Of a stretch of DNA of 64,000 bases, positions 576 to 34,399 are shown one piece after another; position 1 is the stretch's first letter; each line of letters begins with the position of its first letter. The stretch covers positions 22,868 through 86,867 of the forward strand of contig DOSJ01000019.1 of assembly GCA_003514005.1 (NCBI GenBank), given 5' to 3'. Source of the stretch: Candidatus Falkowbacteria bacterium. GTDB taxonomy: Bacteria > Patescibacteriota > Patescibacteriia > Patescibacteriales > UBA12075. Under the pieces are notes generated by a model. The model saw only the letters and a list, made by a program, of their open reading frames with translations. It was not told the DNA's origin and did not search any database. The position numbers and the translations under genes were made by a program.

Positions 576-1262
576 TTATGCTCCGTTTTCGGAAAGTGAT
601 TCCTGAAATGTTTCAAGCAAATCTTTATCGCTTATCTGATCCAACATAGTCTTTTCCATTCCGGCGTCAATAAGCATTTGACGCAAAGTTGCTGCGTCCA
701 TTTCAAGCGGATTAATACCGGTCTCAGTCGTACTGCCAATCATTTTTTCTTCATTTAAAGCTTTTAGCTCTTCTAAGTCAATATTATTAGCCGTACCTGG
801 ATTGGTCAAATCAGCATCTTCGTTTAAAAAAACATTACCCGAGCATTCCAATCCAGTAGGACAATTCGGGTCTTTGCTATTATTAATCTCTTCTTTATCC
901 AAAAAACCATCACTGTCCGAATCCTCGAGGTATGGTGATGTTTTATAAATATACAGCTCATCATAGTCTGATAAGCCGTCTTTGTCCGTGTCTTTGTTTT
1001 TAAGCTGTTCAATGCTAAGGTCATTACAATTTCCATCGGCGCAGGTGTTTGTGTCCATATTGTTTTTGACAATTGTTTTCGGTGTAAATGGAGCGTAGAT
1101 ACCAGAACGCAAACCGGCAATACCATAAATAATTACGATAAACGCAAAAACAGCCAGCACCGCCAAAGCAATCTTCCGACTTTTATCCAAACCGTTAAAA
1201 ATATGGACGTTTTGATTTTCGACCATCTGGTTTGATTCTTGTTCGTTGTTGTTTTCAAGCAT
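576..1262 (-). CDS. membrane-anchored protein with thrombospondin type-3-like Ca-binding repeats
   Basis: 228-aa ORF with one TM helix (IALAVLAVFAFIVIIYGIAGL). Two DxDxDGxxDxxE motifs (DTDKDGLSDYDE, DSDSDGFLDKEE; nt 888-992). Confidence 0.6.
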   Translation of the reverse strand: MLENNNEQESNQMVENQNVHIFNGLDKSRKIALAVLAVFAFIVIIYGIAGLRSGIYAPFTPKTIVKNNMDTNTCADGNCNDLSIEQLKNKDTDKDGLSDYDELYIYKTSPYLEDSDSDGFLDKEEINNSKDPNCPTGLECSGNVFLNEDADLTNPGTANNIDLEELKALNEEKMIGSTTETGINPLEMDAATLRQMLIDAGMEKTMLDQISDKDLLETFQESLSENGA

Positions 1263-1383: not shown

Positions 1384-2304
1384 TCACTCAATAACTCCAA
1401 ATAATCTAATCCAATCGTCAACCGAAAGCTCCTGCGCCCGGATCTTCTCATCAAAACCGCATTCTTTAAACCATTCCCCCACTTTTTCTTGGCCAATCTT
1501 ATAACAACCCGCCAAATTATTCTTAAGCATTTTCCTTCGTGAACCAAACCCAAACTTAACCATCCGAAAAAATGCTTTATTATCAATTTCTAACTTCTTA
1601 CTTCTAACTTCTAGCTTAATTACCGCACTCTCCACCGCCGGCACCGGCCAAAAAGCCACCCTCGGCACATATCCCACAATTTCCGCGTCTGCATAAAACT
1701 GCACCGAAACCGCCAAAAGACTCATTTTACCTGGTTTGGCAACAATTCTCTCAGCCACCTCTTTTTGGAGCATCAGGGTCATTGTCTCTGGTTTATTTTC
1801 GGATTCAAGAAATTTGCGGAGGAAGATTGAGGTGATGTTGTAGGGAAGGTTGGCAACGACTTTGTAATTTTTAATTTTTAATTTTAAATTTTTATTCAAT
1901 TTTAAATTTTCAATTTCTAATTTATCTTTTTTTTCAGATTCATTTATAATTAAATCATTAAAAATTGAATTAAAATTTAAAATTTCAAATTTAAAATTAA
2001 AATCAAGAATATTCTCATTAACAACCTCTACATTCTCGACTTTATCAAACCTCCGTCCAAGCAATCCTGCCAAAACGTCGTCAAGCTCCACCGCCACCAC
2101 TCTCCCCGCCTTCTCTGCCAATTTCTCTGTCAAAAACCCAAGCCCCGGCCCCACTTCCAAAACCGTATCATCTTTATTAATCCTTGCAACCTCAACAATC
2201 CGATCATAAATATTTTCCTCAATTAAAAAATTCTGCCCTTTTGAACGGGAAGGAATGATATTGTTTTTTTTACAAATTTCCTCTGTTTTTTGGAATAGGT
2301 TCAT
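1384..2304 (-). CDS. rsmA: 16S rRNA (adenine1518/1519-N6)-dimethyltransferase RsmA/KsgA
   Basis: Motifs SRSKGQNFL, VLEVGPGLGFLT and VANLPYNITS. ATG 2304 lies 1 nt after the TGA (2308-2306) of the upstream ORF; the track start 2328 would overlap that ORF. Carries a low-complexity insert. Confidence 0.85.
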   Translation of the reverse strand: MNLFQKTEEICKKNNIIPSRSKGQNFLIEENIYDRIVEVARINKDDTVLEVGPGLGFLTEKLAEKAGRVVAVELDDVLAGLLGRRFDKVENVEVVNENILDFNFKFEILNFNSIFNDLIINESEKKDKLEIENLKLNKNLKLKIKNYKVVANLPYNITSIFLRKFLESENKPETMTLMLQKEVAERIVAKPGKMSLLAVSVQFYADAEIVGYVPRVAFWPVPAVESAVIKLEVRSKKLEIDNKAFFRMVKFGFGSRRKMLKNNLAGCYKIGQEKVGEWFKECGFDEKIRAQELSVDDWIRLFGVIE

Positions 2305-2305
2305 A

Positions 2306-5068
2306 TCAATATTTTCCATATATATCATAACAATCCCTATTAATTCTATCTACAGACCAACAAGTCCCACGCGCATAACAATTCCAATGTTCAGGATGTT
2401 TGCTTATGTTTGTTTTTCTTTGAATACAAACATATTCATCATTATTTGGCCACAGATTATATGTATAGTATGTTTTACAATTAGCCGTATCTTTGTCCCA
2501 ATAAAATGACTCTGGACAAGTGCAATCTCCACAATATGTTTTTACTCCACATATTTGATGATAATCACAGACATAACCAAGTGAAGCACAGGTATCAGGA
2601 CAAAATACTACACAATTTCCATTCTTGCAAACATTTCCACCTGTGCAAGGTGTATTTTCCGCTTTATTCGTATGACTTACAATTCCGCTCGCGCAAGTAT
2701 CAATCGTGCACTCATTGCCATCATCCGCGCTTAATGTACCGGCAACTCCGATTTGAGTGCCGACACAGCTGCCAGTTTGAGTAAATGTATCACCAACACA
2801 AACCGTATTTGCCAACGGACTCCAGGTGTTTCCACTGCAACATTCAATGGTGCCACCACAACCATCATTATACGAAGATTTTATTTCAGTTACGGAAAAA
2901 TTCGCACAAGTAGCTGGCACACAGCAAGCAGCGCTTTGCGTATTCGCCCCTTGGCAAGTTTTACCACCACAGACAGGGGCGGAACAAGTTCGCGTTTGTG
3001 TGGTAAAACCATTACCATAGGTGCCGCTGTTCAGTTTGCAAACTCCGTCTACCCAGGCTGACCAAACACCATCAGTCGGATTACAACAAGCATTATTGTC
3101 ATACTGACAATTATCTTTTGTACAGGCAAGCGTACCAAATTTAAATCCAAATTTCTGACATGTTTGTTCGTTCAGCTTGGTACCATCGCATTCTTCACTT
3201 TGTCCATTACCATTCGGTTTCTGAATAATGCCATCACCGCAAAATGTATTTTTACAATTATCATAGCAGGTGTCATTGTTTTTTCCATTCTTACCGTCAT
3301 CACATTCTTCCTGTGGTGCTTCTTTGTTTTTGTTTCCGCAATACCCACCATTATATATACAGCTAGCGTCACAACCATACTGCTTATTAATATTCGAATC
3401 AATCGCATTGTTTGCGATATTGTCAATTGTATCACAGCTCTCAAAGCCATCATCCTTCGGCCCGCCTTTCTTTTCGGTATTGGGTTTTTGGGTTTTACCG
3501 TCACCGCAGTAGTTACTTACGGTTAGACCGTATTTAACATGTTCACTAGTCGCGTTATCCGCAGATACAGCGGTTAATTCAATATTGTATGATCCAGCGG
3601 AATTGATGTCTGGCGTACCATATATTTCTGCTGTTGCTGTTAATCCCGTGCTAATCTGGCGAATGCTCATCCCAGTGGGCAAATTTTTTACGTTAATGAC
3701 TATAACACTATCAAAAAGATGTGTAGCGGTAATTGTGCAGATAGGATAAACACTATTTACTCTGACACTGCGAGTGCAATTTAGAGGCTCGCTTATCTTT
3801 GGTTTTGGTTTGGATACTGTCAGATAAAAATTCTTGCTAGTTCTGCCGCCCCTACCATCATCGATAACGACTGTAAAATCATATTTACCTGGGTCGCCGG
3901 CTTTGGGTGAATAGAGCATCTTTTGTTTGTAAACCGAGGCGGCTTTGAGTATTGGCATATTAATGGCTTCCCAGCCGATCCAGACAGGAGTAACTACAAA
4001 TAGGCTATTCAATGGAAAAAAACTCCAGGTTAGGGAGTCGCCATCGGGATCAATTGCTTCGATATATGCTTTGTATTCGGTTTGAGAATAATTCAATGGA
4101 AAATTGTAGCTGGTAAATTCCGGGGCGCGATTTGGAATTGCTGTGCCGGAACAGCCAACAATATTTACGTATGCTGTTTCCATATTTGCGCACAGGCGGT
4201 ATTTACTGCCATTGGGGCTGGCTGTATACAAAAAAACATTGGCACCGATTGGCAATGTCACAGTTGGCAAAATATCAACACCCGAGGCGGGTGAGGTTAT
4301 GCTGGCAAATTCTTTTTTGTTTTCATCCCAGCAGGTAATCTTATTAAATCGATCATCTTTGCAATCACCAATATTATTTATCGGGTCAACGAACAGATTC
4401 ATTTCCAAGCTTTGCGCAAGCACTTTTTGCCAGCTGGGCCAGACAGATATGGTTATTTGGGGCAGATATGAGCCGGATTTTAGATTGGGATATGTGCCGT
4501 TTACTGTTTTTTGTTCTTCCAGTCTTTGTCTCATATTGGCAATGTCCGAAAGTCTTTTTACATCCCTAACTATCTTGGCTTTGTCGCTGTTGCAGTATTC
4601 CCCGCTTTGGCATTCTGAATCTAGTACACAAACCAACCCAGACACAGAGTCCGGCTTGATACAATTACCCTCTGTATTGATATTGGTATTAAATTTCCAT
4701 TGCTTGATGATACGACCAAAGATATCGATCGTAGCTTGTTCCACTTCTTGATTATATGAAATGATATAGATATTGGTCTGAAGCGTATTGCCGACAATAT
4801 TGGCGGCATTGATATATATTGTGCGTCCATCACGAACGGCTTCATAGCCGTCTACCAAGAGGGCTTGCGGAGAACCAGTGAATTTTTGGAATTTGTACCA
4901 ATCGTTTGGCGAAAAATGTTCCGGGTTTGAGAGAATACGGATGGCAATGGCGTCTTTTGAGAGGGCATGAGTGGGAATTGGGGTGCAAAATATTATTATG
5001 GCATAGCAAAAAAACAATATGAAAAATATTGCTATAAAATTTTTTTGATTATGCAAATTTGCAAGCAT
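2306..5068 (-). CDS. large secreted Cys-rich surface protein (putative adhesin)
   Basis: 920-aa ORF with N-terminal signal/anchor IAIFFILFFCYAIIIFC. Two Ig/cadherin-like (He_PIG-type) segments (AIDPDGDSLTWSF; GTPDINSAGSYNIELTAVSADN). C-terminal third has CGDG..EECDG repeats and a WSAW..TQTRTC..CGGKTC module. Confidence 0.75.
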   Translation of the reverse strand: MLANLHNQKNFIAIFFILFFCYAIIIFCTPIPTHALSKDAIAIRILSNPEHFSPNDWYKFQKFTGSPQALLVDGYEAVRDGRTIYINAANIVGNTLQTNIYIISYNQEVEQATIDIFGRIIKQWKFNTNINTEGNCIKPDSVSGLVCVLDSECQSGEYCNSDKAKIVRDVKRLSDIANMRQRLEEQKTVNGTYPNLKSGSYLPQITISVWPSWQKVLAQSLEMNLFVDPINNIGDCKDDRFNKITCWDENKKEFASITSPASGVDILPTVTLPIGANVFLYTASPNGSKYRLCANMETAYVNIVGCSGTAIPNRAPEFTSYNFPLNYSQTEYKAYIEAIDPDGDSLTWSFFPLNSLFVVTPVWIGWEAINMPILKAASVYKQKMLYSPKAGDPGKYDFTVVIDDGRGGRTSKNFYLTVSKPKPKISEPLNCTRSVRVNSVYPICTITATHLFDSVIVINVKNLPTGMSIRQISTGLTATAEIYGTPDINSAGSYNIELTAVSADNATSEHVKYGLTVSNYCGDGKTQKPNTEKKGGPKDDGFESCDTIDNIANNAIDSNINKQYGCDASCIYNGGYCGNKNKEAPQEECDDGKNGKNNDTCYDNCKNTFCGDGIIQKPNGNGQSEECDGTKLNEQTCQKFGFKFGTLACTKDNCQYDNNACCNPTDGVWSAWVDGVCKLNSGTYGNGFTTQTRTCSAPVCGGKTCQGANTQSAACCVPATCANFSVTEIKSSYNDGCGGTIECCSGNTWSPLANTVCVGDTFTQTGSCVGTQIGVAGTLSADDGNECTIDTCASGIVSHTNKAENTPCTGGNVCKNGNCVVFCPDTCASLGYVCDYHQICGVKTYCGDCTCPESFYWDKDTANCKTYYTYNLWPNNDEYVCIQRKTNISKHPEHWNCYARGTCWSVDRINRDCYDIYGKY

Positions 5069-6574: not shown

Positions 6575-9148
6575 TCATTTCACCACCACATTCACAAGCT
6601 TCCCTCCCACAAAAATAACTTTCATAATCTCTTTATCATCAATAAATTTTTTCACCTTCTCGCTCTCTAGCGCGATTTTTTTTGCGTCTTCTTCGGATAT
6701 ATTTGCATCAACTTCGATAGTATCACGCAGTTTTCCGTTCACCTGGATAACCATCTGAATCTTTTCGTCTTTGATCAATTCAGGGTCATACTTTGGCCAT
6801 GACTGTTTGAAAATTGATTCAGAATTTCCTAGTCCGCTCCAAATCTCCTCGGTAATATGCGGCGCAAACGGCGCCAAAATAATCAAAAATTTTTCATACG
6901 TATCTCGGCTAATCTCTTTTTCTTTTTCCAGGGCATTAACCAATATCATCATCGCACTAATCGCCGTATTAAACTTAAACTCCAAAATATCCTCTCCAAC
7001 CTTCTTAATGGTTTTATGCAGAAGATTTAATATCGCACTTGTCCCGGCTCCCCCACCGTGTTGCATGTTGCGTGTTGCGTGTTGCATGTTATATATTCTC
7101 TCAAGAAATTTCCTCGCCCCAACCAACCCATTCGTGCTCCAAGCAACCGACTGTGAAAACGGCCCCATAAACATTTCGTAAACACGCAAAGCGTCCGCGC
7201 CGTATTTTTCTACGATATCATTAGGATTAATCACGTTACCCCAACGCTTCGACATCTTGCGCCCGTCTTCGGCCATAATCAAACCGACATGCTGTAAACG
7301 CGTAAACGGCTCTTCGTAGTTGACCGCTCCGATATCAAATAAAAATTTGTGCCAAAAACGCGCGTATATCAAATGACGAGTGGCATGCTCGGCACCGCCG
7401 ACATAAAAATCAACCGGTGACCAGTATTTGTCTTTCTTGATATCGATTAACGCGTTATTATTTTTCGGATCAATAAACCTAAGATAATACCAACTGGATC
7501 CGGCCCACTGCGGCATAGTATTTGTTTCACGCTTGCCCGCACCGCCGCATTTCGGACATTTCGTATTCACCCATTCCGGAATAGTGGCCAAAGGCGACTC
7601 GCCAGTTCCACTTGGTTCATAATGCTCAACATCCGGTAAGCGTAACGGCAATTCCGATTCCGGCACAGGTATCGCACCGCATTTTTCGCAATGCACAATC
7701 GGTATCGGTTCGCCCCAATATCTCTGCCGCGAAAATACCCAATCTTTGATTTTGTAATTCACAGCTCTCTTGCCCAATCCTTTTTCCGTAAGCCAAGCAA
7801 TCATTTTCTCTTTGGCTTCGATAGCATAATACCCATTTAAAAATCCTGAATCAAATAACCATCCATAATCCGTAATAGCATGGGACGGATCTTTATTTAT
7901 GTCTTTTTGGGCTTGTTGTTTTAACAAAGATAATAATTCTTCATCTTCAATTTTATTTCCGCTATTAACACTAGTGGGGTTAACTGTTCTTCGTGTTAAT
8001 GTTTTTTCACTCTCATTCCAAAATTCAAGATAGCTATGAAGAATTGGTTTAATTTTAATATTATACTTCTTCGCAAACTCAAAATCTCTCTCATCATGCG
8101 CCGGCACAGCCATTATTGCCCCTGTTCCATAACCCATCATGACATAATCAGCAACAAAAATAGGCAACTCTTCTCCATTCACCGGATTGATAGCAACCAA
8201 ACCCTCAATCTTAACCCCGGTCTTTTCTTTATTAAGCTCCGTCCGTTCCATGTCCGACTTCGCCCCGGCTTTTTTCATATATTCTTCAACTTCATTAAAA
8301 TTGGAAATCGACAATCGGAAATCGGAAATTAACGGATGTTCTGGCGCAACCACAAAATAAGTCGCCCCAAATAGCGTATCCGGTCGAGTGGTGAATATTT
8401 CTTGTTCAATTTTCTTTTCATTCGGAAATCGACAATCGACAATCGCAAATTTCACAATCGCTCCCGTAGACTTCCCAATCCAATTCCTCTGCATCTCTTT
8501 GATCGAATGCTCCCAATCCGGCAATTTGTCGAGATCCGCAAGCAAGCGATCGGCATAATCCGTAATGCGCAGCACCCATTGCCGCATCGGTTTGCGCTCC
8601 ACTTCGGAATCACAGCGTTCACAACGTCCACCTTCTAGGTCTTCCATGGATAAACCGGTCTTGCAAGAAGGACACCAGATAATCGGCTCAAAAGATTCAA
8701 AAGCTAACCCGCGCTCAAACATTTTCAAAAACGCCCACTGCGTCCATTTATAAAATTCCGGATCAGTCGTATTTATCTCGCGCTCCCAATCATAAGAAAA
8801 ACCGATTTTAAGCAGCTGTTTTTTAAAAGTATCAATATTCTTTGCGGTCGCAATACGTGGATGAACCTTGTGCTTAAGGGCGTAATTCTCGGTCGGCAAC
8901 CCGAACGCATCCCAGCCCATAGGATGAAGAACATTGTAACCCTGCATTTTTTTCAAACGCGCAAAAATATCGGTCGCGATATAACCTTTCGGATGCCCGA
9001 CATGCAACCCTTCACCCGACGGATACGGAAACATATCCAAAATAAAATATTTCGGTTTTGTCGTGTCTTCGCTGGTTTTATACAGCCCGTCTTTCTCCCA
9101 TTTCTCCTGCCATTTTTTTTCTACTTCTTTGTGATTATAGTTTAACAT
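6575..9148 (-). CDS. leuS: leucine--tRNA ligase
   Basis: 857 aa. HIGH-type motif (GLHVGHPKGY), KMSKRWGN (KMSKS), FTTRPDTLFGATY and Zn-finger Cys pairs. Contains three word-repeat insertions. Confidence 0.95.
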   Translation of the reverse strand: MLNYNHKEVEKKWQEKWEKDGLYKTSEDTTKPKYFILDMFPYPSGEGLHVGHPKGYIATDIFARLKKMQGYNVLHPMGWDAFGLPTENYALKHKVHPRIATAKNIDTFKKQLLKIGFSYDWEREINTTDPEFYKWTQWAFLKMFERGLAFESFEPIIWCPSCKTGLSMEDLEGGRCERCDSEVERKPMRQWVLRITDYADRLLADLDKLPDWEHSIKEMQRNWIGKSTGAIVKFAIVDCRFPNEKKIEQEIFTTRPDTLFGATYFVVAPEHPLISDFRLSISNFNEVEEYMKKAGAKSDMERTELNKEKTGVKIEGLVAINPVNGEELPIFVADYVMMGYGTGAIMAVPAHDERDFEFAKKYNIKIKPILHSYLEFWNESEKTLTRRTVNPTSVNSGNKIEDEELLSLLKQQAQKDINKDPSHAITDYGWLFDSGFLNGYYAIEAKEKMIAWLTEKGLGKRAVNYKIKDWVFSRQRYWGEPIPIVHCEKCGAIPVPESELPLRLPDVEHYEPSGTGESPLATIPEWVNTKCPKCGGAGKRETNTMPQWAGSSWYYLRFIDPKNNNALIDIKKDKYWSPVDFYVGGAEHATRHLIYARFWHKFLFDIGAVNYEEPFTRLQHVGLIMAEDGRKMSKRWGNVINPNDIVEKYGADALRVYEMFMGPFSQSVAWSTNGLVGARKFLERIYNMQHATRNMQHGGGAGTSAILNLLHKTIKKVGEDILEFKFNTAISAMMILVNALEKEKEISRDTYEKFLIILAPFAPHITEEIWSGLGNSESIFKQSWPKYDPELIKDEKIQMVIQVNGKLRDTIEVDANISEEDAKKIALESEKVKKFIDDKEIMKVIFVGGKLVNVVVK

Positions 9149-12725: not shown

Positions 12726-13405
12726 TGAACAATCCCTTAAAACCCTGGTATAAAAAATGGTGGGGCGTATTGGCATTATTAGCGCTTTTGTTTTTTATAA
12801 GCATATTTTTTGCTTTTGTTTTTTTGGTTATCAATTCCCGTGATACTGCGCCTAGCTCTGGCATCAATCCTTTGTTAACGCAAAAAGTTCCGGCGCTGGC
12901 GATCGGTACGGAAAAAAACTATTGGCTCGGAAGCGCAAATCCAAAAATTACGATTGTCGAGTTTGGCGATTTTGCCTGTTCCTACTGTCAAAAATCGTTT
13001 TCCAAAATCCGAGAAATCAGCCAATTATACAAAAACGATATCAAATACATTTACCGCGACTATCCTGTCGTATCCGATTATTCCGCCAAGCTGGCCTTGG
13101 CCGCGCGCTGTGCCGGCGAACAAGGACTTTTTTGGATAATGCATGACAAGTTGTACATCAACCAAGGCATTAGTACGGATCAAGAAATATTAAATCATTT
13201 CAAACAAACCGGAGGCAATGAAGCAAAATTTTCCACCTGTTACGACGCAAACAAATATCTTCCCGAAATCGAAAAAGACTTGAGCGACGGACAATCTCTT
13301 AACATCACCGGCACGCCGACGTGGTTTGTGAATGGACAGAGGCTCGAGGGAGATGTGCCGTATGAGTATTTTATTAACCTAATTTCTAACATATTAGGTA
13401 CTTAG
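12725..13405 (+). CDS. DsbA/thioredoxin-fold thiol:disulfide oxidoreductase, membrane-anchored
   Basis: 226 aa with an N-terminal TM helix. CxxC active site in FGDFACSYCQ and a DsbA-like C-terminal part (ITGTPTWFVNG). Confidence 0.75.
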   Translation: MNNPLKPWYKKWWGVLALLALLFFISIFFAFVFLVINSRDTAPSSGINPLLTQKVPALAIGTEKNYWLGSANPKITIVEFGDFACSYCQKSFSKIREISQLYKNDIKYIYRDYPVVSDYSAKLALAARCAGEQGLFWIMHDKLYINQGISTDQEILNHFKQTGGNEAKFSTCYDANKYLPEIEKDLSDGQSLNITGTPTWFVNGQRLEGDVPYEYFINLISNILGT

Positions 13406-13488
13406 GTGCTTGGGTACTTAGGGGTTTGGTTTATTACAATTTTACCTCAACCCTAAGCACCCAAGCACCTAAGTACCTAAGTACCTAA
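13394..13488. repeat. intergenic hairpin, CCTAAGTA word family
   Basis: ttaggtacttaggtgcttgggtacttagggg vs ccctaagcacccaagcacctaagtacctaa: about 30 bp with 1 mismatch. Left arm contains the dsbA-like stop; right arm ends 4 nt before the porG ATG. Confidence 0.75.
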
Positions 13489-13491: not shown

Positions 13492-14034
13492 ATGAAACAA
13501 ATTCGCATACACGGCCGCGGCGGCCAAGGCGTAGTTACGGCAGCGGAACTTATCGCCATCGCCGCATTTAACAACAACAAAGAAGCGCAGGCCTTTCCGT
13601 CTTTTGGCGTAGAGCGCACTGGCGCACCGATCGAGGCATTCGCGCGCATTGACGACAAACCGATTCGTACGCGCGAGCATGTATACCATCCGGATATTTT
13701 GATTGTCCAAGACGCTTCAGTCATGGCCGCTGTTGATGTTGCCAAGGGCTGTGATGAAAAAACAATCGTAATCATCAACACTTCCCTTTCCAAAGACGCG
13801 ATTAAGCTTAATTTACCAAAAGAAAATATTTTCCCGATCGATGCCACAAAAATTGCTTTGGAAATTCTTGGCAAAAATATCGTCAACACAATTATCCTCG
13901 GCGCCGTCGCCAAATCGACTAACCTTTTTACAATGGACGCTGTCAAAAAAGCCATCAAACAAAAGTTTGGCGGCAAGAGCCAGGAGTTGGTTGATAAGAA
14001 TATTAAGGCGGTGGAGCTGGCCTATAACATGTAA
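13492..14034 (+). CDS. porG: 2-oxoacid (pyruvate):ferredoxin oxidoreductase gamma subunit
   Basis: 180 aa. The N-terminus IRIHGRGGQGVVTAAELIA is typical of POR/VOR gamma subunits. Confidence 0.85.
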   Translation: MKQIRIHGRGGQGVVTAAELIAIAAFNNNKEAQAFPSFGVERTGAPIEAFARIDDKPIRTREHVYHPDILIVQDASVMAAVDVAKGCDEKTIVIINTSLSKDAIKLNLPKENIFPIDATKIALEILGKNIVNTIILGAVAKSTNLFTMDAVKKAIKQKFGGKSQELVDKNIKAVELAYNM

Positions 14035-14060
14035 ACCCTATTTTTGATTAATAGAACAAA

Positions 14061-14128
14061 GTTAATTAGTTGATTAGTTAATTAGGGTATAAATATTTAC
14101 ATCCTAATTAACTAATCAACTAATTAAC
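14061..14128. repeat. hairpin between porG and porD, TTAATTAG word family
   Basis: gttaattagttgattagttaattagg (14061-14086) is the exact reverse complement of cctaattaactaatcaactaattaac (14103-14128). Confidence 0.8.
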
Positions 14129-14144
14129 TAATTAACTAACAAAT

Positions 14145-14408: not shown

Positions 14409-14902
14409 CTTTTTTGTCATCTCGACCGAGCGAAGCGAGCGGAGAGATCTATAATACATCAATAAAGCACGCGCAATGTTCAATAAAAAAAGTTATAATT
14501 TCTATATTTACATTTTAAGCAATTACGACCGCAACTGTCTATACGTTGGATTTTGCAACGATATCGCCAGAAGAATTATCGAACACACACATAGCTTCGG
14601 ATGCGAATACTCAAAAAAGTACAAAACCTTTGATTTATTATATTATGAACATTATCAATATGTTAACGAAGCAATAGCCAGAGAGAAACAAATCAAAAGA
14701 TGGGGAAGAGATAAAAAAATAGCTTTAATAAAAACTAAAAATCCGGAATTAAAAAAATTAACCAAAAATTATTCAATGATTTTAGACTTTCTGAAAAAGA
14801 TATCTCTGAAATAGCTGATATTTTAAAAGAAAAATATTCAGCTAGGGATTAAAGTATTACAGATCTCTCCACTCGCTTCGCTCGGTCGAGATGACAAAAA
14901 AG
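14409..14902. mobile_element. GIY-YIG ORF bracketed by 42-bp terminal inverted repeats (element E)
   Basis: cttttttgtcatctcgaccgagcgaagcgagcggagagatct (14409-14450) matches the reverse complement of 14861-14902 at 41/42 positions. Inserted between porD and porA. Confidence 0.7.
14476..14814 (+). CDS. GIY-YIG nuclease family protein (small stand-alone URI/COG2827 type)
   Basis: 112 aa with NFYIYIL..LYVGFCNDIARRIIEH..YYE...AIAREKQIKRW.RDKK. About 45 percent identical by eye to ORF 16292-16594. Confidence 0.85.
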   Translation: MFNKKSYNFYIYILSNYDRNCLYVGFCNDIARRIIEHTHSFGCEYSKKYKTFDLLYYEHYQYVNEAIAREKQIKRWGRDKKIALIKTKNPELKKLTKNYSMILDFLKKISLK

Positions 14903-14950: not shown

Positions 14951-16168
14951 ATGTCAACTAATAAATCTAATAGACAAATACTCGAGGGCTCACAGGCCAT
15001 CGCCCAACTAATCAATAACATCAAACCCGGCGTCGTATCCGCTTATCCAATCACTCCACAAACACATATCGTCGAAAACTTGGCAAAGTTCAAAGCCGAT
15101 GGCAAGGCGAAGTATGAATACGTCCGCGCCGAAAGCGAATTTGCTGCCGCTTCGATTGTTCTGGGTGCAAGCGCTACCGGTCTGCGTGTTTATACGGCCA
15201 CAAGCTCGCAAGGACTTTTGCTTATGAACGAAGTGGTATACAACATTGCCGGTATGCGTTTGCCTGTCGTTATGACAGTCGCAAACCGTGGCGTATCTGC
15301 GCCGATTACTATTTGGAACGACCACCAAGACGCTATGTCTGTTCGCGATGCCGGCTGGATTATGCTATTTGCCGAGAATCATCAGGAAGCGATTGAGCAA
15401 CATCTCTTAGCATACAAGATTGCGGAAAAGAAAAAAATTCCGGTCATGGTCAATATCGATGGTTTTGTTCTTACTCATACTTACGAAGGCGTGGAAGTGC
15501 CTTCATCAACAGAAATAAAAAAATTCTTACCTGACTATAAACCAAAAGCCGGTGAATATCTTGACACAGCACACCCCCGAACCTTTGGCGCCTTTGCCGC
15601 TCCGGCGCACTATATGGAGATTCGTCATGAGTTGCACGAGGACTTGCGCAATTGTCAATCGGAAATTTTGGAAGAATATGAAAGCTTAAAAAAACTGGTT
15701 CCAAACGCCATCAAACAAACGGAAAAAAACGCGCAGATAAATAATGGCTTGGTTGAATATTATGGACCAAAAAATCCCAAAATTGTTCTGGTCGCAATGG
15801 GTTCGCTAATCGGCACCATCAAAGACGCAGTTGACAAGCTCAATATCAAAAGCCATGTCAAACACTATGTCTCCCCCACCTCTGTCGGTGTTTTGAAAAT
15901 AAAAACCTTCCGTCCCTTCCCGGATAAAGCGATTGTAGATATTTTAAAAAACGCCAAATACTGCGCCGTTATCGAAAAGGCTGTTTCCCTTGGCGCTACC
16001 GACGGTCCTTTGGCTATAGATATTAAATCAGCCGCAAAAAACAGCATCAAAACCAAAATCCAAAGCTACGTTGTTGGCCTAGGTGGACGCGATATCACGC
16101 AGGACAGAATCGCAAGGATCGTTGTCGATGTGCAAAAAAAGGATGATCGGATGAAGTTTGTGGGATAA
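14951..16168 (+). CDS. porA: 2-oxoacid:ferredoxin oxidoreductase alpha subunit
   Basis: 405 aa. ILEGSQAIAQ..SAYPITPQT..ESEFAA..GA..TATSSQGLLLM is typical of POR alpha. Confidence 0.85.
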   Translation: MSTNKSNRQILEGSQAIAQLINNIKPGVVSAYPITPQTHIVENLAKFKADGKAKYEYVRAESEFAAASIVLGASATGLRVYTATSSQGLLLMNEVVYNIAGMRLPVVMTVANRGVSAPITIWNDHQDAMSVRDAGWIMLFAENHQEAIEQHLLAYKIAEKKKIPVMVNIDGFVLTHTYEGVEVPSSTEIKKFLPDYKPKAGEYLDTAHPRTFGAFAAPAHYMEIRHELHEDLRNCQSEILEEYESLKKLVPNAIKQTEKNAQINNGLVEYYGPKNPKIVLVAMGSLIGTIKDAVDKLNIKSHVKHYVSPTSVGVLKIKTFRPFPDKAIVDILKNAKYCAVIEKAVSLGATDGPLAIDIKSAAKNSIKTKIQSYVVGLGGRDITQDRIARIVVDVQKKDDRMKFVG

Positions 16169-16203: not shown

Positions 16204-16707
16204 TTGTCATTTCGCAGCGAAGCGGAGAAATCCCTTATCCATGAATAATCCTCCTATTAGTTTTTTTAGCAAATACTAAAAAAACCATATTATGGCTACA
16301 AAGAAAGAATATAATTTTTATATCTACATATTGGCAAGCGACACAGGAACGTTATATATCGGTTTTACAAATAATCTTGAAAGACGAATCAAAGAACATA
16401 AAAGTGGAATAATAAAAGGATTCACTCAAAAATATGGTTGCAATAAATTAGTATATTATGAACATTATACTTATGTAAACAATACGCTTGAACGTGAAAA
16501 AGAATTGAAAAAATGGAATAGAAATAAAAAGCAAGATTTAATAAAATCAATGAATCCACACTGGAAAGATATTTCAATCGAATTGTTTACATAATTTTTT
16601 GTCATTCCGTAGCAAGATGAGAAAACCTTTAAACAAGAATTGCGTACAAAATGATCAATTCATTATCAACCGTTAAGGGATCTCTCCGCTTCGCTACGAG
16701 ATGACAA
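16204..16707. mobile_element. GIY-YIG ORF with 34-bp inverted ends plus nested miniature copy (element F)
   Basis: Left end ttgtcatttcgcagcgaagcggagaaatccctta (16204-16237) vs right end 16674-16707: 31/34 as reverse complement. An extra left-end-like copy lies at 16599-16631, just after the ORF stop. Confidence 0.65.
16292..16594 (+). CDS. GIY-YIG nuclease family protein (URI/COG2827 type)
   Basis: 100 aa with NFYIYILAS..GTLYIGFTNNLERRIKEHK..YYE...LEREKELKKWNRNKK..NPHWKD. Confidence 0.85.
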   Translation: MATKKEYNFYIYILASDTGTLYIGFTNNLERRIKEHKSGIIKGFTQKYGCNKLVYYEHYTYVNNTLEREKELKKWNRNKKQDLIKSMNPHWKDISIELFT

Positions 16708-19368: not shown

Positions 19369-19399
19369 CCTGGATTCCCGCCTCCGCGGGAATGACAAG
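19369..19399. repeat. solo hairpin end of the GTCATTCC MITE family
   Basis: cctggattcccgcctccgcgggaatgacaag closely matches the right end of copy D (37638-37667). No partner end nearby. Confidence 0.6.
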
Positions 19400-19403: not shown

Positions 19404-19622
19404 ATGATTTATTTTACAAAATACTCCGAACAAAAATTTGAAATCCTGAACAAGTACCAGGTGTTTTTTCGTAAGGAAGAGATTTGTGACGCGGTTTTAA
19501 ATCCGGACAAAATTTCAAAAAAAGGGAAATATTTGTCAGCGCGGAAAGACGGGATTAAGGTTGTTTATGATAAGAAGGCGGGTGTTATTCGCGTTATTAC
19601 TTTTTATCCAATTAAAATATAA
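19404..19622 (+). CDS. small DUF4258-like protein (putative toxin)
   Basis: 72 aa. Resembles the DUF4258 pattern (..NPDKISKKGKYLSARK...KVVYDKKAGVIRVITFYP) and is followed by a DUF2283-like ORF. Weak assignment. Confidence 0.4.
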   Translation: MIYFTKYSEQKFEILNKYQVFFRKEEICDAVLNPDKISKKGKYLSARKDGIKVVYDKKAGVIRVITFYPIKI

Positions 19623-19624
19623 TA

Positions 19625-19708
19625 CGAATACTACAAATAACATTCAAATACTACAAAAATTTTTCAATTCAACATTTTGTAGTATTTGAATATCATTTGT
19701 AGCATTTG
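19625..19708. repeat. intergenic hairpin, TACTACAAA word family
   Basis: cgaatactacaaataacattcaaatactacaaaa vs ttttgtagtatttgaatatcatttgtagcatt. The same words occur at 45563-45640 and 49455-49490. Confidence 0.7.
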
Positions 19709-19732
19709 AATTATAAGTTTTTACACAAAAAC

Positions 19733-19954: not shown

Positions 19955-19970
19955 AATTTTTTTAAAAAAA

Positions 19971-20036
19971 GTTAATTAGTTAATTAGTGATTAGGAGCAT
20001 AATCCACTCGGCCTAATCACTAATTAACTAATCAAC
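19971..20036. repeat. hairpin upstream of porB, TTAATTAG word family
   Basis: gttaattagttaattagtgattagg vs cctaatcactaattaactaatcaac, a near-perfect 25-bp inverted repeat. Confidence 0.75.
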
Positions 20037-20050
20037 TAATAACATATTAT

Positions 20051-20995
20051 ATGCCAATAACCACAGAACAAAAAACAATCACAAAACCAAAACCCACCCC
20101 CTCCCTCTTCGCCGCCGGCCACCGGGGTTGTGCGGGATGCGGACAGATGCTGGCCGCGCGCACTGTTATCAATGCGCTAGGGACCAATACGATTATTGCG
20201 AACGCGACCGGGTGTTTGGAAGTTACCACCACGCCTTATCCGGAAAGCGCATGGGGTGTGCCGTGGATACATTCACTTTTTGAAAATCCGGCCGCGGTTG
20301 CGTCTGGAATATTGGCGGGACTTAAACAAAAAGGCAAGGACAAAAAAGTAAAAATCCTTGTACAGGGCGGCGACGGCGGTACTTTTGATATCGGTTTTGG
20401 GCTGATCAGCGGTATGTGGGAACGAGGCGAAAATATTCTTTATGTTTGCTACGACAATGAAGCCTACTCCAATACCGGCATGCAGGCATCAGGCGCAACA
20501 CCTTGGGCATCCAATACCACGACCACCCCGGCCGGAAGCGGAACAACGATAGACGCAATCGGCTCGCATCAAAGCAAAAAAGACATGATCGCGATCGCTT
20601 TGGCGCACGGTGTCAAATACGTCGCACAATGTACAACCGGCTACCTGGAAGACATCGAGGCCAAAGTAAAAAAAGCGGCAACAATCGAAGGTCCGTCATA
20701 TATCCAGATCCTTGCTCCCTGCATACCCGGCTGGCACATAAAACCGGACCAGGCCATGAGCCTAAGCCGTCTTGCCACCCAAACCGGCCTTTATCCCCTT
20801 TTGGAATATACTGACGGAGCGTTAACCAAAGTTATGCCGGTCCCAGCTAATACGCCGCGCGTCGAAGAATATCTAAAACCGCAAGGACGCTTTTCTCATC
20901 TATTCAAAGGCGACCACGGCAAAGAATTGATCGCGCAAGTACAGGCTTTGGCGGATGGGAATATTTTGAAGTATGGATTGAAAAAAGTGACTTAA
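20051..20995 (+). CDS. porB: 2-oxoacid:ferredoxin oxidoreductase beta subunit (TPP-binding)
   Basis: 314 aa with GHRGCAGCG, GGDGGTFDIGF and YVCYDNEAYSNTG, typical of POR beta. Confidence 0.85.
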   Translation: MPITTEQKTITKPKPTPSLFAAGHRGCAGCGQMLAARTVINALGTNTIIANATGCLEVTTTPYPESAWGVPWIHSLFENPAAVASGILAGLKQKGKDKKVKILVQGGDGGTFDIGFGLISGMWERGENILYVCYDNEAYSNTGMQASGATPWASNTTTTPAGSGTTIDAIGSHQSKKDMIAIALAHGVKYVAQCTTGYLEDIEAKVKKAATIEGPSYIQILAPCIPGWHIKPDQAMSLSRLATQTGLYPLLEYTDGALTKVMPVPANTPRVEEYLKPQGRFSHLFKGDHGKELIAQVQALADGNILKYGLKKVT

Positions 20996-25245: not shown

Positions 25246-25256
25246 ATATTTTATTA

Positions 25257-25329
25257 AATTCTAATTTCTAATTTCTAAAGCCTAAATTTATGATTAAATT
25301 TAGAAATTAGAAATTAGAAATTAGAAATT
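25257..25329. repeat. rpoB-rpoC intergenic hairpin, TTAGAAA word family
   Basis: aattctaatttctaatttctaaagcctaaattt vs aaatttagaaattagaaattagaaattagaaat. The right arm is 4 units of a 7-nt period. Confidence 0.8.
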
Positions 25330-25346
25330 TTATTTAATTTTATTTA

Positions 25347-30938: not shown

Positions 30939-31976
30939 TCACTTTATCTTCCTTCTCACCCACCTAAGCCAATTATACATCTTATACAAAACCGAATCAA
31001 ACACCGCATCAAAAGTCCCCGGATAGTCAACTTCTTCTCCGCCATAACCTTTTTTAAACCGCGTAACTCCCGGCCATTTACTCTCGTCAATGCCAAAAAA
31101 ATCATAATATCGACAACCACGCGCCTTTGCTTCGCGAATACTCTGCCACTGCAAAGCATAAGTCGCCATCAAATTCCGATATTCATTTGAAGAAGCGCCA
31201 TGCACATAGGTCACGGTATCGCCAAAAAACGCAACAATATTTCCGGCAATAATTTTGTTTTGATATTTTGCAATAAATAATTTAATAGACAAACCTGATA
31301 TTGAATATTGATTATTGGAAATTGAATTATTATTGGATATTGAATGATTATTGAGTATTGAATATTGAACATTAAAAAGCATTTTCCAATAATACTCCTT
31401 ACCATGCAAGCGAAACCCATCACGCTCATTCGTTTCCCGCATAATCTCCCAAAACTCTTCAAAATCCTCTTTCTTAGCCTCACTAATTTCTATCCCCTTC
31501 TTTTCTGTCAAACGAATATTATAACGAGTCTTCGGATGCATCTGTTTCAATATTTCATCTTCTGATTTTGAAATATCAAGTATCAATGTCTTTTTCGGCT
31601 GCAAAGAAATTGTTTCTATAATTTTATACTTCTTACTTCTAACTTCTAACTTCACAACCGGTTCAAAACGCAAAAATATACATTTTTCTTTTTTCGCAAT
31701 TTTTTTTATCTCCAAAAACAAATCGGAAATCGCAAATCGCAAATCGCAAATCCCCACCCTTGGCGCATAAAAATACCCCAACCCCAAAAACAATCTTTTT
31801 CTAATCAAAGTAACCACGCCAACCAACTCTCCGTTTTCCTCAATCCCAAACCGAAAAACCTTATTCCCAGCCGCTTCCTGAAATTCTCCCCACTCGAAAG
31901 ACTGCAAAAATTGGCTTTGTTTTTGTTTAGTTAAATAATTATTTAATTGTTCTTTAGTTATATCTATTAATCTCAT
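30939..31976 (-). CDS. FemAB-family peptidoglycan interpeptide-bridge aminoacyltransferase
   Basis: 345 aa with FLQSFEWGEFQ, HGASSNEYRNLMATYALQW and RYYDFFGI, typical of the FemAB/FemX family. Three word-repeat insertions. Confidence 0.75.
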   Translation of the reverse strand: MRLIDITKEQLNNYLTKQKQSQFLQSFEWGEFQEAAGNKVFRFGIEENGELVGVVTLIRKRLFLGLGYFYAPRVGICDLRFAISDLFLEIKKIAKKEKCIFLRFEPVVKLEVRSKKYKIIETISLQPKKTLILDISKSEDEILKQMHPKTRYNIRLTEKKGIEISEAKKEDFEEFWEIMRETNERDGFRLHGKEYYWKMLFNVQYSILNNHSISNNNSISNNQYSISGLSIKLFIAKYQNKIIAGNIVAFFGDTVTYVHGASSNEYRNLMATYALQWQSIREAKARGCRYYDFFGIDESKWPGVTRFKKGYGGEEVDYPGTFDAVFDSVLYKMYNWLRWVRRKIK

Positions 31977-32013: not shown

Positions 32014-32413
32014 TATATTGGGTAAGAGCGTATCTTGCCAGTGGTGATGCATTATAACCGTCAAACCGGAATTCTGCTTAGCCAACGCCTGTGCAGATTC
32101 CAAAAAGGAGAAACGCCTATGTTTGCACTAACCATTAATTGTACGGGGATGTTCGCTTGCTGAATTATTGACGTAACCAAAAAAAACGCGAACGCAAAAA
32201 GTTAACCGCTTATATTAAAAGGAGACATCGCCTATGTATACGTCAAAAGATAACACCATGTAATGCAGAGGGCTTAGGCACAGGAAAGCCGCTTACACGC
32301 GAATGTCTTTCGCCTAAAGACGCTTTATTCGCGTGTAAGCGCAACCCCACTTTGTTCTTTTTCAAAAAAGTTTTCAAGTATCAACTGGTATTCAAACACC
32401 AGTTTTTATTTTA
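32014..32413 (+). ncRNA. candidate ~400-nt orphan RNA with two SD-led micro-ORFs
   Basis: Bounded by the promoter above and terminator 32383-32413. Micro-ORFs at 32119-32163 (MFALTINCTGMFAC) and 32234-32263 (MYTSKDNTM), each behind AAAAGGAGA-N7-ATG. Hairpin of 15+6 bp at 32290-32341. Visibly more GC-rich than other spacers. Confidence 0.4.
32383..32413 (+). terminator. rho-independent terminator (plus strand)
   Basis: Stem aactggt / accagtt with an 8-nt loop, followed by tttttatttta. The minus-strand reading has no U-run. Confidence 0.7.
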
Positions 32414-32463
32414 TTCTTAATTCTAACTTCTTACTTCTTCCTTCTAACTTCTAACTTCTCACT

Positions 32464-33048
32464 TCATCTCCCAATCAACCGCAACGCCGCTCGAATTCTC
32501 TCACCCGAACCCTTAATACTCGGATCAACCTGCCGCAAAACATCACGCGCTTCAAACATGGAATAACCCAGGGCCATCAAAGCGTCAATCTCTTCCCCCG
32601 AAGTAATCATCCCTTTACCATCTGTCGCTTGCAGTACGCCATGTGAAATATGCGCAATCTTGTCACGCAAATCTAAAACCACACGCTCGGCAGTCTTCTT
32701 ACCGATCCCTGAAACTTTTATCAAAAGCGAAGAATCACCACGCGATATCGAATCCTTGATATCATCGACACTCGCGATGCCAATAACAGCAAGCGCCGAT
32801 TTCGGCCCAATACCGCTAATCGTCAAAAGTAATTCAAACATCTCTAATTGTTCTAATGATTTAAAACCGTACAGGGTGTGGGCATCCTCACGAATATGCT
32901 GATGAATATACAGCTCTATTTCCTGTCCGATTTCAAGGTCAACAAAAATAGTTTCACTGACAAAAACCAGGTAACCAATGTCACGCACGTTCAAAATAAT
33001 ATAATTCTTTTGTTTGTTTTGAATTTTTCCTCGTAAATACGCTATCAT
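32464..33048 (-). CDS. ruvA: Holliday junction DNA helicase subunit RuvA
   Basis: 194 aa with MIAYLRGK.., HhH motifs (ISGIGPKSALAV, VSGIGKKTAERV) and a C-terminal domain III. Confidence 0.9.
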   Translation of the reverse strand: MIAYLRGKIQNKQKNYIILNVRDIGYLVFVSETIFVDLEIGQEIELYIHQHIREDAHTLYGFKSLEQLEMFELLLTISGIGPKSALAVIGIASVDDIKDSISRGDSSLLIKVSGIGKKTAERVVLDLRDKIAHISHGVLQATDGKGMITSGEEIDALMALGYSMFEARDVLRQVDPSIKGSGERIRAALRLIGR

Positions 33049-33122
33049 AAATTTCTAAATCCTAAATTATAATTTCTAAATTAATGCATTTATTAGACAT
33101 TAGAAATTATAATTTAGAAATT
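33049..33122. repeat. hairpin, TTAGAAA word family
   Basis: Right arm 33093-33122 is the reverse complement of a 30-mer (aatttctaaattataatttctaatgtctaa) found identically at 39613-39642. The right arm supplies the last 5 codons and stop of the U32 ORF. Confidence 0.8.
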
Positions 33123-34399
33123 TTTCTTCTTATCACACTAAACTCCACCACCATCTCATCCAACTCCAACCACACCAAAGCCCCCTGCCCACCATGCGCC
33201 TCTGCAATTTCCGCCCCGGTTTTAGCGTCCCAAAGCCTTTCCACCTTCAGCTTAATTATATCATACTTCGGCTTCACAATCTCAATCTCATCGCCAACTC
33301 TAATTGAATTATGAACTTTAATTAAAACCTTCTCACTTCTTGCTTTGAACTTCTTACTTCTAACTTCTAACTTCTTACTTACCACAACTCCGCAAAACTC
33401 CCACTCACTTTTCTCATGCGAATTATCCAAATTCTGATCCGCCTTATCTCCCAACAAAAACCCGGTCGTATAACCACGATGCACAAGTTTTGTTTCCAGC
33501 TCTTTTTGTAAATATTCCATTTCAACGATCTGATTTTTTTTATTTTTAATACCAAGCAATTCTATCGCCCGTGAATAAATACCCGCAACTACCGCCTGAT
33601 AATAAACGCTCTTTGCTCGTCCCTCGATCTTAAAACTTGAAATCCCAGCTTCTTGAAGTTCCTTTAAATATTTCACCAAACACAAATCCTTCGAATTCAA
33701 AATATACGACCCATGTTCTTCTTCAACAATTTCAAACTCATCACCTTTCTCATTTCTTACTTCTAACTTCTCACTTCTCACATCCCCCTTCCATCTACAA
33801 GGCTGCACGCAATCCCCCAAATTCGCGCTCCTATCCGCATAATATTTTGACAAAAAACAACGCCCTGAATAAGCCATGCACATCGCGCCATGCACGAAAT
33901 ATTCTAATTCCAAATCAGGACATTTTTTATGAATCATTTTGATTTCCGGCAAAGTCGTTTCACGACCCAGAATAATTCTTTTCACTCCTTGCGCTTGCCA
34001 AAATTTTGCCGCCTGCCAATTTGTGCAATTAGCCTGCGTGGAAAGATGAATTTCAACTTCTGGCCAAATTTCTTTTACAATCTCAATCACGCCAGGGTCA
34101 GAAATAATCAAAGCATCGACTTTTATTTTTTTTAATTTTTTAATATATACTGGCAATTTTTCCAAATGTCGATTATGCGCAAAAATATTTACGGTGATAT
34201 AAATCTTCTTACCGATTTTATGGCAATATTCAGTAGCCTCCTTAATTTTCTCCAAATCAAAATCATTAATCCTCACCCGTAAAGAAAAATCCGGAATCCC
34301 GGCATAAACCGCATCCGCCCCAAAAACAAGAGCCGTCTTCATCTTCTCCATATTCCCAGCCGGAGCAAGCAATTCAATTTTACTAAATTTTTTATCCAT
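33107..34399 (-). CDS. peptidase U32 family protein
   Basis: 430 aa with ELLAPAGN, YFVHGAMCMAYSGRCFLS, CVQPCRW and FKIEGR, typical of U32. Confidence 0.85.
   Translation of the reverse strand: MDKKFSKIELLAPAGNMEKMKTALVFGADAVYAGIPDFSLRVRINDFDLEKIKEATEYCHKIGKKIYITVNIFAHNRHLEKLPVYIKKLKKIKVDALIISDPGVIEIVKEIWPEVEIHLSTQANCTNWQAAKFWQAQGVKRIILGRETTLPEIKMIHKKCPDLELEYFVHGAMCMAYSGRCFLSKYYADRSANLGDCVQPCRWKGDVRSEKLEVRNEKGDEFEIVEEEHGSYILNSKDLCLVKYLKELQEAGISSFKIEGRAKSVYYQAVVAGIYSRAIELLGIKNKKNQIVEMEYLQKELETKLVHRGYTTGFLLGDKADQNLDNSHEKSEWEFCGVVVSKKLEVRSKKFKARSEKVLIKVHNSIRVGDEIEIVKPKYDIIKLKVERLWDAKTGAEIAEAHGGQGALVWLELDEMVVEFSVIRRKISKL

Follow-up and report, generated by a model that had tools for sequence, protein, structure and literature searches.

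An in-frame A/T palindrome of heptamer arrays in the rsmA gene of a Candidatus Falkowbacteria bacterium, and repeat DNA in the same loop of its relatives

In-frame 'selfish' palindromes have so far largely been tied to Rickettsia, whose palindromic elements (RPEs) are described, as far as recounted in PMC10969869, as multi-copy families, ten of them with 44 copies being first reported in R. conorii (Ogata et al., 2000). Tandem arrays of 7-nt units are described from Xanthomonas (GGGAATC) and from Nostoc/Calothrix, where about four units are typical and heptamers are over-represented compared to other unit lengths; these arrays often follow stop codons directly, on the sense strand, and sometimes form inverted, stem-loop-forming pairs (PMC4692102). 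REPINs, in turn, are imperfect hairpins of about 100 nt made of two inverted repetitive extragenic palindromic (REP) sequences, abundant after genes and mobilised by REP-associated tyrosine transposases (RAYTs) of the Y1 type (PMC3116915, PMC3337134, PMC3733652). Here we describe a 138-bp, almost entirely A/T palindrome composed of heptamer arrays that lies in the coding frame of rsmA (ksgA) in DNA from a Candidatus Falkowbacteria bacterium (assembly GCA_003514005.1, contig DOSJ01000019.1, positions 22,868 to 86,867, forward strand). This whole stretch of 64,000 nt is called the window, and coordinates refer to it unless the handle of a related genome (L001 and the like) precedes them. A reading of the letters of the window, the original prediction, had proposed an RPE-like palindromic low-complexity element of about 125 bp at 1867-1990. 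The segment in rsmA proved to be real, with those limits slightly too narrow (1861-1998), and it has the following parts.

1384..2328, minus strand: rsmA/ksgA coding sequence, host gene of the insert, 314 aa, coordinates including the stop codon (open reading frame list; Pfam RrnaAD, E=1.4e-57)
1861..1998, minus strand: loop-1 segment of 46 codons, flanked by ..ILDF (motif III) and VVANLPY (motif IV), encoding NFKFEILNFNSIFNDLIINESEKKDKLEIENLKLNKNLKLKIKNYK
1862..1920: palindrome arm 1, T-rich on the plus strand and, as the distal arm of the coding strand, A-rich: (TNAAAAT)n, encoding LEIENLKLNKNLKLKIKNYK
1921..1943: central spacer of 23 nt, the hairpin tip, unpaired in the predicted fold and encoding approximately ..NESEKKD..
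1944..2002: palindrome arm 2; on the coding strand the T-rich proximal arm (AATTTTA)n, encoding FNFKFEILNFNSIFNDLII

The insert contains 8.0% GC compared to 41% in the remainder of rsmA, visible as a dip to 9-14% around 1850-2000 between flanks of 41-59%. Its two arms of 59 nt each are 80% complementary and 23 nt apart (1862-1920 / 1944-2002), and folding of 1850-2010 as RNA led to -32.4 kcal/mol with z=-4.77, a value that none of 200 dinucleotide shuffles equalled or bettered; the imperfect inverted repeat that had been proposed is thereby confirmed. The peptide quoted in the original prediction is exact and is read through without a stop, as the coding frame of the insert contains none, compared to 1-11 in each of the other five frames. 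Such an open frame was obtained in just 8 of 5000 dinucleotide shuffles of the insert. Autocorrelation peaks at lag 7 (0.66) and is 0.56 at lag 14, with lag-7 tracts at 1856-1900 (arm 1) and 1966-2006 (arm 2); read on the coding strand, a heptamer array (AATTTTA)n comes first and an inverted one, (TNAAAAT)n, second. One unit of these arrays equals the intergenic unit TAGAAAT. Since both arms also contain the non-periodic motif TTCAATTTT, one of them as its complement, they are true inverted duplicates, beyond merely complementary low complexity. The encoded peptide is rich in K and includes the stretches ..ILDFNFKFEILNF.. and ..NDLIINESEK.., and the insert as a whole forms one inverted repeat, the stem of which reaches into the conserved flanking codons GAT-TTT (D-F) and AAA-GTC (K-V). 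Neither terminal repeats nor a target duplication of the insert could be defined, short duplications being uninterpretable in the A/T low-complexity flanks. All invariant RsmA residues are kept in the two halves flanking the insert. What is shown, then, is a coding palindrome made from two inverted arrays of heptamers within an enzyme that is otherwise intact and conserved.

Comparison of the protein with solved structures by phmmer gave a split alignment, in which residues 8-114 correspond to residues 10-116 and residues 156-309 to residues 129-289 of the KsgA from B. subtilis. This leaves 41 residues (115-155) in the RsmA of the window compared to 12 (117-128) in B. subtilis KsgA, where about 17 had been given for KsgA of E. 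coli. The 54 residues originally counted between the ..NENILDFNF and VVANLPYNITS blocks had to be corrected to 44. In an AlphaFold2 model based on 120 homologues, with a mean predicted local distance difference test score (pLDDT) of 88.5 and a core above 90, insert residues ~111-150 are predicted at a pLDDT of about 50 between beta3 (100-103) and beta4 (155-160), including two helices of low confidence (residues 120-127 and 130-146). With KsgA structures the model agrees at a target-normalised TM score of up to 0.91; outside the insert, the modelled fold is that of a normal KsgA, from which the insert departs as a low-confidence excursion at the 12-residue loop of KsgA. For the 30S-KsgA complex, cryo-EM contacts are described for loop1, loop12 (K169), loop14 (R235-K237) and the beta6-beta7 linker, and the loop between motifs III and IV is not among the contacts described (bioRxiv 10.1101/2021.09.15.460497). 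From the low-confidence excursion in the model and the absence of this loop from the described rRNA contacts, the site looks permissive. It is also compatible with the fold, given the difference in pLDDT between core and insert and the existence of orthologues, at most 67% identical, whose loops are as short as 6-8 aa.

As low-complexity sequence of such extreme A/T content is prone to mis-assembly, and as all sequences concerned are derived from metagenomes, we were interested whether the insert is authentic. A public sequence collection contains the identical protein with the insert on 23 contigs or more, in 27 blocks, and the rsmA DNA of the window is identical in two separate NCBI assemblies of Candidatus Falkowbacteria bacterium, GCA_000992375.1 and GCA_003508365.1. 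The cluster of this RsmA at 90% has one other member only, which differs by V224G outside the insert and leaves the insert unchanged. As the same gene recurs on many contigs, two separate NCBI assemblies included, the insert is not an assembly error, and an artefact was rejected. A decaying pseudogene would be expected neither to keep a frame that so rarely stays open by chance nor to retain all invariant residues in two flanking halves that model as a complete KsgA fold. Artefact or decay, taken together, are hardly credible explanations.

Several known types of insertion were considered as well. Inteins were ruled out, 46 aa being far too short and the segment starting with N-F and ending with Y-K, without intein terminal residues. 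A search of 1200-2500 against Rfam (E<=1) gave no family except a chance miRNA-like hairpin outside rsmA, and with no Rfam match at the insert an intron or known RNA was ruled out too. Scans for terminator and promoter consensus sequences gave nothing specific at the insert. Nothing in the sequence suggests a removal of the insert at the RNA or protein level.

The insert shares with RPEs, as these are presented in the source cited above (PMC10969869), the form of a palindrome of about 100-150 bp that lies in frame in a housekeeping gene, is read as extra peptide and occupies a site compatible with the fold, with insert-free orthologues. In the same account RPEs keep their sequence and peptide across the copies in a genome, whereas no second copy of the rsmA insert was found in 64 kb; moreover, the insert is 92% A+T, is made of 7-nt units and resides in a Candidate Phyla Radiation (CPR) bacterium. 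Homology of the insert to Rickettsia RPE families is unlikely in view of its composition and its Falkowbacteria host. The designation 'RPE-like' suits the insert as an in-frame palindrome in a fold-compatible loop; as a mobile multi-copy element it finds no support in the 64 kb, where there is neither a second copy nor a definable end. Long inverted repeats with both arms translated are also present in mitochondrial protein-coding genes of Nematomorpha; there, the arms match perfectly and specify conserved portions of the proteins (PMC6649704), in contrast to the 80% complementary arms in a non-conserved, presumably dispensable loop described here. PARCEL repeats resemble the insert as coding repeats with dyad symmetry of the DNA and an amphipathic peptide, but are tandem 25-residue domains of accessory or surface proteins that spread horizontally (PMC2996958), whereas the insert is a single hairpin in a housekeeping enzyme.

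The loop was compared in the 120 homologues at the protein level and in 74 related genomes that could be recovered with their DNA. Where named, the homologues are all of Patescibacteria type (Falkowbacteria, Magasanikbacteria, Parcubacteria). Loop length varies from 7 to 46 residues in the homologues, the loop of the window being the longest, and from 6 to 53 residues in the 74 genomes. Nearly all loops, those of normal length included, are built of 7- or 8-nt arrays, AT-rich hairpins, GC-rich palindromes or hairpins bounded by GTCAT...ATGAC. Arrays in relatives include (TTCAATTT)n encoding FNFQFSIF, (AATACGA)n encoding NTKYEIR, (CGGATTT)n and (GAAATTGG)n, and AT-rich hairpins of 7- or 8-nt arrays occupy the loop in L001, L037, L015 and L014. 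GC-rich palindromes such as CCCCTCTCCTAATTAGGAGAGGGG are read as PLLIRRGE, and the GTCAT...ATGAC hairpins as VILRELATEES..LRMT, HPREGGNPE..WIPDQVRDD or VIASE..RNDI. A fold with z<-2 was obtained for 19 of 40 loops of at least 15 residues. A hairpin (z<-2) or a 7/8-nt period was detected in 33 of 72 loop segments, compared to 29 of 288 control segments from the same genes; periodic arrays alone numbered 11 in the loop segments and none in the controls. A homologous, non-repetitive segment of constant length throughout the clade, which would have spoken against an inserted repeat, is thus not what the relatives contain.

Even between genomes that are 76-83% identical elsewhere, the loops can be unrelated (L006/L007, L049/L063, L047/L050, L005/L001), and their length may change from 13 aa in L047 to 53 aa in L050 or from 8 aa in L005 to 37 aa in L001. 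Turnover of the loop is fast and proceeds by wholesale replacement between relatives; throughout the clade, this hypervariable loop is a hotspot filled with repeats. Some of the loop elements have counterparts outside rsmA: the array in the L028 loop agrees in all of 36 nt with an array between genes of its own genome, the loop element of L050 has 33 partial matches within its own 11.7-kb locus, one arm of the L023 element shares 97-100% identity over 32 nt with segments that lie in frame in leucyl-tRNA synthetase (LeuRS) of L023 and L030, and the L029 element belongs to the GTCATTCCCGCGAAGGCGGGAATC family, which is found intergenically in the window. The genomes L053 and L023, 82% identical, have a GTCAT-type hairpin of the rsmA loop in common (L053:10313-10420 and L023:10313-10399); in L053 an additional GC-rich hairpin (GTCCCGCCCCATAAAATGTGGGGCGGAAC) is nested in one of its arms, giving a hairpin within a hairpin. 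In five related genomes, the opposite strand carries a gene for an IS200-like Y1 transposase just upstream of rsmA.

L010:8818-9534, minus strand: Y1 transposase gene (Pfam Y1_Tnp)
L003:8747-9430, minus strand: Y1 transposase gene (tblastn homology)
L076:4909-5541, minus strand: Y1 transposase gene (tblastn homology)
L066:7753-8481, minus strand: Y1 transposase gene (tblastn homology)
L058:1100-1759, minus strand: Y1 transposase gene (tblastn homology)

Four of these five genes (L003, L010, L058, L066) contain a strong in-frame hairpin themselves, e.g. ..KEAKLLQKHSFCSSLASK.. in L010.

A single period detector was run at lags 5-13 over the window and 82 loci, with locally shuffled sequence as control. 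It returned 161 tracts at lag 7, 33 at lag 8 and no more than 9 at any other lag, and none in the shuffles; the window alone contributed 22 tracts at lag 7, 6 at lag 8 and 2 at lag 10, with none at lags 5, 6, 9, 11 and 12. Within the loci, 82 of 139 lag-7 tracts (59%) lie inside open reading frames (ORFs) of at least 150 aa, but only 1 of 27 lag-8 tracts. Hosts of lag-7 tracts include loop 1 of rsmA (25), a second and weaker repeat hotspot of the same gene (hotspot 2; 16) and LeuRS in many genomes; in-frame arrays or GTCAT-type hairpins were observed in LeuRS of many related genomes. Cyanobacterial heptamer arrays carry the name 'STRR'. The arrays described here agree with the known heptamer repeats in their tandem 7-nt units, in the over-representation of period 7, which is seen in the window and the loci alike, and in the occurrence of inverted pairs, but those known before are G-rich, lie mostly between genes and are under-represented within them (PMC4692102), whereas the present ones are AT-rich and the majority of their tracts falls into ORFs, essential genes included.

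In the window, in-frame arrays with period 7 occur in rsmA, LeuRS, a FemAB-family protein and a U32 peptidase. When up to 3 mismatches were allowed, a 19-mer, GAAGTTAGAAGTAAGAAGT, was found seven times, in each case on the minus strand, against an expectation of none, and the (TTAGAAG)n family is distributed as follows, its in-frame members being read as KLEVRSKK-type peptides.

1586..1618, minus strand: in frame in rsmA, hotspot 2, about 4 units (TTAGAAG) in the inter-domain linker after residue ~246 of RsmA, encoding IKLEVRSKKLEID
31628-31653, minus strand: in frame in the FemAB-family gene (30942-31976)
33335-33381 and 33752-33784, minus strand: in frame in the U32 peptidase gene (33110-34399)
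32412-32465, minus strand: non-coding, right after the stop of ruvA
49495-49520, minus strand: non-coding, right after the stop of dnaK
51633-51651, minus strand: non-coding, right after the stop of the ORF 51652-52647

Aligned to KsgA 7v2l, hotspot 2 shows no insertion, and its length is the native one found in B. subtilis KsgA. An array without any change in length indicates that repeat DNA can replace unconstrained coding sequence, in addition to lengthening it. Further in-frame arrays with period 7 lie in LeuRS (6575-9148, minus strand) at 7054-7101 and in the FemAB-family ORF at 31341-31379 and 31712-31761; the peptides of the arrays in these two genes are NMQHATRNMQH, LFNVQYSILNN and GICDLRFAISDLF.

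The original prediction had described the insert as being of the same style as the intergenic hairpins of the window. This is correct for the 7-nt periodicity, as eight AT-rich intergenic hairpins gave lag-7 autocorrelations of 0.49-0.61, but the insert is not a copy of any such hairpin. A covariance model built from six intergenic copies (AATTTCTAA..TTAGAAATT) recovered its source copies on the plus strand at E=5e-9 to 3e-5 and other hairpins weakly, and did not match the rsmA insert at E<=10, so that membership in this family was rejected. By blastn, the insert gave 5.5 matches per 10 kb in the window and 4.8 in 80 unrelated loci, without enrichment within the genome, and neither blastn nor the covariance model revealed a second copy in the 64-kb window. 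The 24-nt centre of the insert had no exact match in a metagenome collection. With 59 nt, its arms also exceed those of every intergenic hairpin in the window (maximum 52). No transposase was found in the 64-kb window by Pfam analysis of all sizeable ORFs or by tblastn with the Y1 protein of L010; as a source of a mobilising enzyme, the window was dismissed, Pfam giving housekeeping genes only, plus two small GIY-YIG ORFs.

From the heptamer structure of the insert, its low-confidence position in the model and the contents of the loop in related genomes, we consider it probable, with an estimate of about 0.6, that the insert is the abundant 7-nt repeat DNA of this clade, located in frame in a permissive loop of RsmA, tolerated there and likely generated locally. 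Tandem arrays of short period (7 nt), often with an inverted copy and then forming a long AT-rich hairpin, are abundant in this genome and its clade, and such DNA would have come to fill the surface loop that links motif III (..ILDF) to motif IV (YK-VVANLPY). The array may have grown by replication slippage and been inverted and duplicated by template switching; alternatively, short-patch copying from another array might have brought it into a loop with almost no sequence constraint. Transcribed and translated together with rsmA, the T-rich arm would give a stretch rich in F, I, L and N, and the A-rich arm one rich in K, N, E and L with a 7-residue period, helical at low prediction confidence. 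The peptide would project from the Rossmann domain and leave the core of the enzyme unchanged, selection possibly acting only to keep the frame open and free of stops, while the DNA itself would be tolerated (neutral or selfish) and not needed for catalysis. We infer that the insert reaches the protein by translation, protrudes at its surface, can be dispensed with and is maintained only as an open frame; that in-frame palindromic repeat DNA is tolerated in a permissive loop is supported. Local generation is favoured over transposition of a bounded element because the insert is single-copy in 64 kb, has no definable ends and extends its stem into conserved codons, and because loops of normal length are arrays, too. 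The latter points to replacement or local generation rather than a simple insertion.

Some observations weigh against this interpretation. The search for further copies covered only 64 kb of the genome. A scan of metagenomes with the protein detected no relative, and among close relatives none lacks the insert, the nearest orthologues being 63-67% identical, so that the ancestral state and the event cannot be reconstructed; minimal loops of 6-8 residues do exist in orthologues, but only at up to 67% identity. Over 30 nt, the A-rich arm (..NLKLKIKNYK) shares 97% identity with an array that lies in frame in LeuRS of L017, and it belongs to a widespread (AATTAAR)n family read as ELRIKNY or KLKIKNY. 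In other genomes, the same loop contains dispersed families (GTCAT...ATGAC, CCCCTCTCCTAATTAGGAGAGGGG, and (GAAATTGG)n, identical to an array between genes of its own genome), which means that DNA does arrive at this site by insertion or by copying from other places, and may have done so here. In addition, recurrence at one site could mean that a hairpin is useful there.

The dispersed families, which occur between genes and in frame in LeuRS as well, would also be expected if a discrete mobile palindromic element of the RPE, miniature inverted-repeat (MITE) or REPIN type had been inserted by a transposase, e.g. a Y1/RAYT-type enzyme acting on hairpin DNA, and had survived by landing in frame in a surface loop. 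The RPE-like size and palindromic form agree with such an element, as do the nested hairpin of L053, the difference in presence or absence between relatives 83% identical, the Y1 genes adjoining rsmA in five genomes, the REPIN-like inverted doublets of GTCATTCCCGCGAAGGCGGGAATC in the window and the restriction of the copy search to 64 kb. Yet the window offers neither a second copy (by blastn, or by the covariance model at E<=10) nor a transposase, the centre has no exact metagenome match, termini and target duplication are not definable, and arms that surpass all intergenic hairpins of the window in length fit poorly; we therefore regard transposition of such an element as unlikely, though deserving serious attention. 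More speculative still would be a dedicated, possibly enzyme-driven process in Falkowbacteria-like CPR bacteria, relying on Y1 transposases or templated repeat synthesis, that writes or copies 7-nt arrays and hairpins after genes and, in frame, also into those loops of essential proteins that are permissive (RsmA, LeuRS, FemAB-family, U32 peptidases). The loop between motifs III and IV of RsmA would then be a preferred landing site, the 138-bp palindrome its largest known product, and the whole a new class of coding-compatible repeat element. Selection for a function is improbable, be it of the hairpin as a signal for mRNA processing, pausing or attenuation or of the peptide as a helical arm contacting the pre-30S particle or a partner. 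Many lineages do have hairpins or arrays at precisely this loop, the same insert stands unchanged on 23 or more contigs of several assemblies and in the V224G allele, and the A-rich arm encodes an amphipathic stretch with 7-residue period that is predicted to be helical. But neither sequence nor length nor element family is conserved at the site, close relatives replace them and loops of 6-8 residues exist, which makes a selected function unlikely; the pLDDT of about 50, the position outside the described rRNA-contact loops, the absence of terminator-like or Rfam signals at the insert and the same repeat types in unrelated proteins point in the same direction.

The value of the finding lies less in the single rsmA insert than in the clade-wide pattern that it exposed. 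Unrelated, genome-reduced CPR/Patescibacteria reach an outcome similar to that in Rickettsia with 7-nt arrays and AT-only hairpins, and the recurrence concerns one loop of an essential ribosome-biogenesis enzyme as well as other housekeeping proteins, showing that genomes of such small size put up with hairpins and repeats in proteins that are essential. If this is true genome-wide, it would explain many odd low-complexity peptides of CPR bacteria (e.g. ELRIKNY.., FNFQFSIF.., KLEVRSKK..), caution against taking such segments for functional domains in annotation and structure prediction, as they are repeat DNA, and provide a natural system to study how repeats are generated and tolerated in essential genes and which loops of conserved enzymes are free of constraint. 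A limited literature search turned up no account of hairpins or heptamer arrays lying in frame in CPR genomes, their housekeeping genes included, an absence that does not prove novelty. TIGR arrays, with units of 36 nt, were dismissed, being tandem guide-RNA arrays of longer repeat units and not hairpins.

Besides the arrays in genes, the window contains several families of intergenic repeats. The six-copy AT-only hairpins follow minus-strand genes in intergenic gaps, two of them within one gap (39603-39941), and the hairpin directly downstream of rsmA (1275-1353) has arms of 23 nt that are 87% complementary.

25250-25336, 33044-33129, 39607-39703, 39780-39860, 46587-46680, 58769-58850: six-copy AT-only intergenic hairpin family (AATTTCT)n..(AGAAATT)n
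13394-13480, 51505-51586: intergenic hairpins with arms of 8-nt arrays (TTAGGTAC)n
14060-14129, 19970-20037, 1275-1353: intergenic hairpins with arms of 8-nt arrays (TTAGTTAA)n
12383-12406/12495-12518, 30781-30804/30889-30912, 19373-19396, 37641-37664: GTCATTCCCGCGAAGGCGGGAATC family, six copies, 0 expected

The GTCATTCCCGCGAAGGCGGGAATC family is one that we take to resemble the ATTCCC..GGGAAT dRS3 repeats of Neisseria. Four of its six copies form two intergenic, REPIN-like inverted doublets about 110 nt apart, and hairpins or repeats with TTTGTAGTATTTGAAT.. motifs and GTAG, recalling GTAG-tagged REPs, lie at 45571-45631, 19618-19715 and ~49440-49495. No RAYT gene was detected in the window. 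A likeness to REP/REPIN systems is given by these doublets and by the Y1 genes next to rsmA in related genomes; however, REPs are extragenic, GC-rich and of high copy number with a GTAG or CGTC head, whereas the insert is intragenic, 92% A+T, without either head and single-copy in the window.

Concerning the neighbouring genes, rsmA overlaps by 23 nt with the end of a gene (2306-5068, minus strand) for a 920-aa cysteine-rich protein of secreted type, which gave a weak match to the He_PIG Ig domain. After rsmA, a 228-aa protein with DxDxDG calcium-binding-like repeats of TSP3 type is encoded at 576-1262 (minus strand), and the protein at the equivalent position in L020 matches the TSP3_bac family. 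Finally, the two free-standing ORFs with GIY-YIG nuclease domains on the plus strand (14476-14811, 112 aa; 16292-16591, 100 aa) are interleaved with genes for subunits of pyruvate:ferredoxin oxidoreductase (13492-14031, 14951-16165, 20051-20992) and are possibly selfish genes similar to homing endonucleases.

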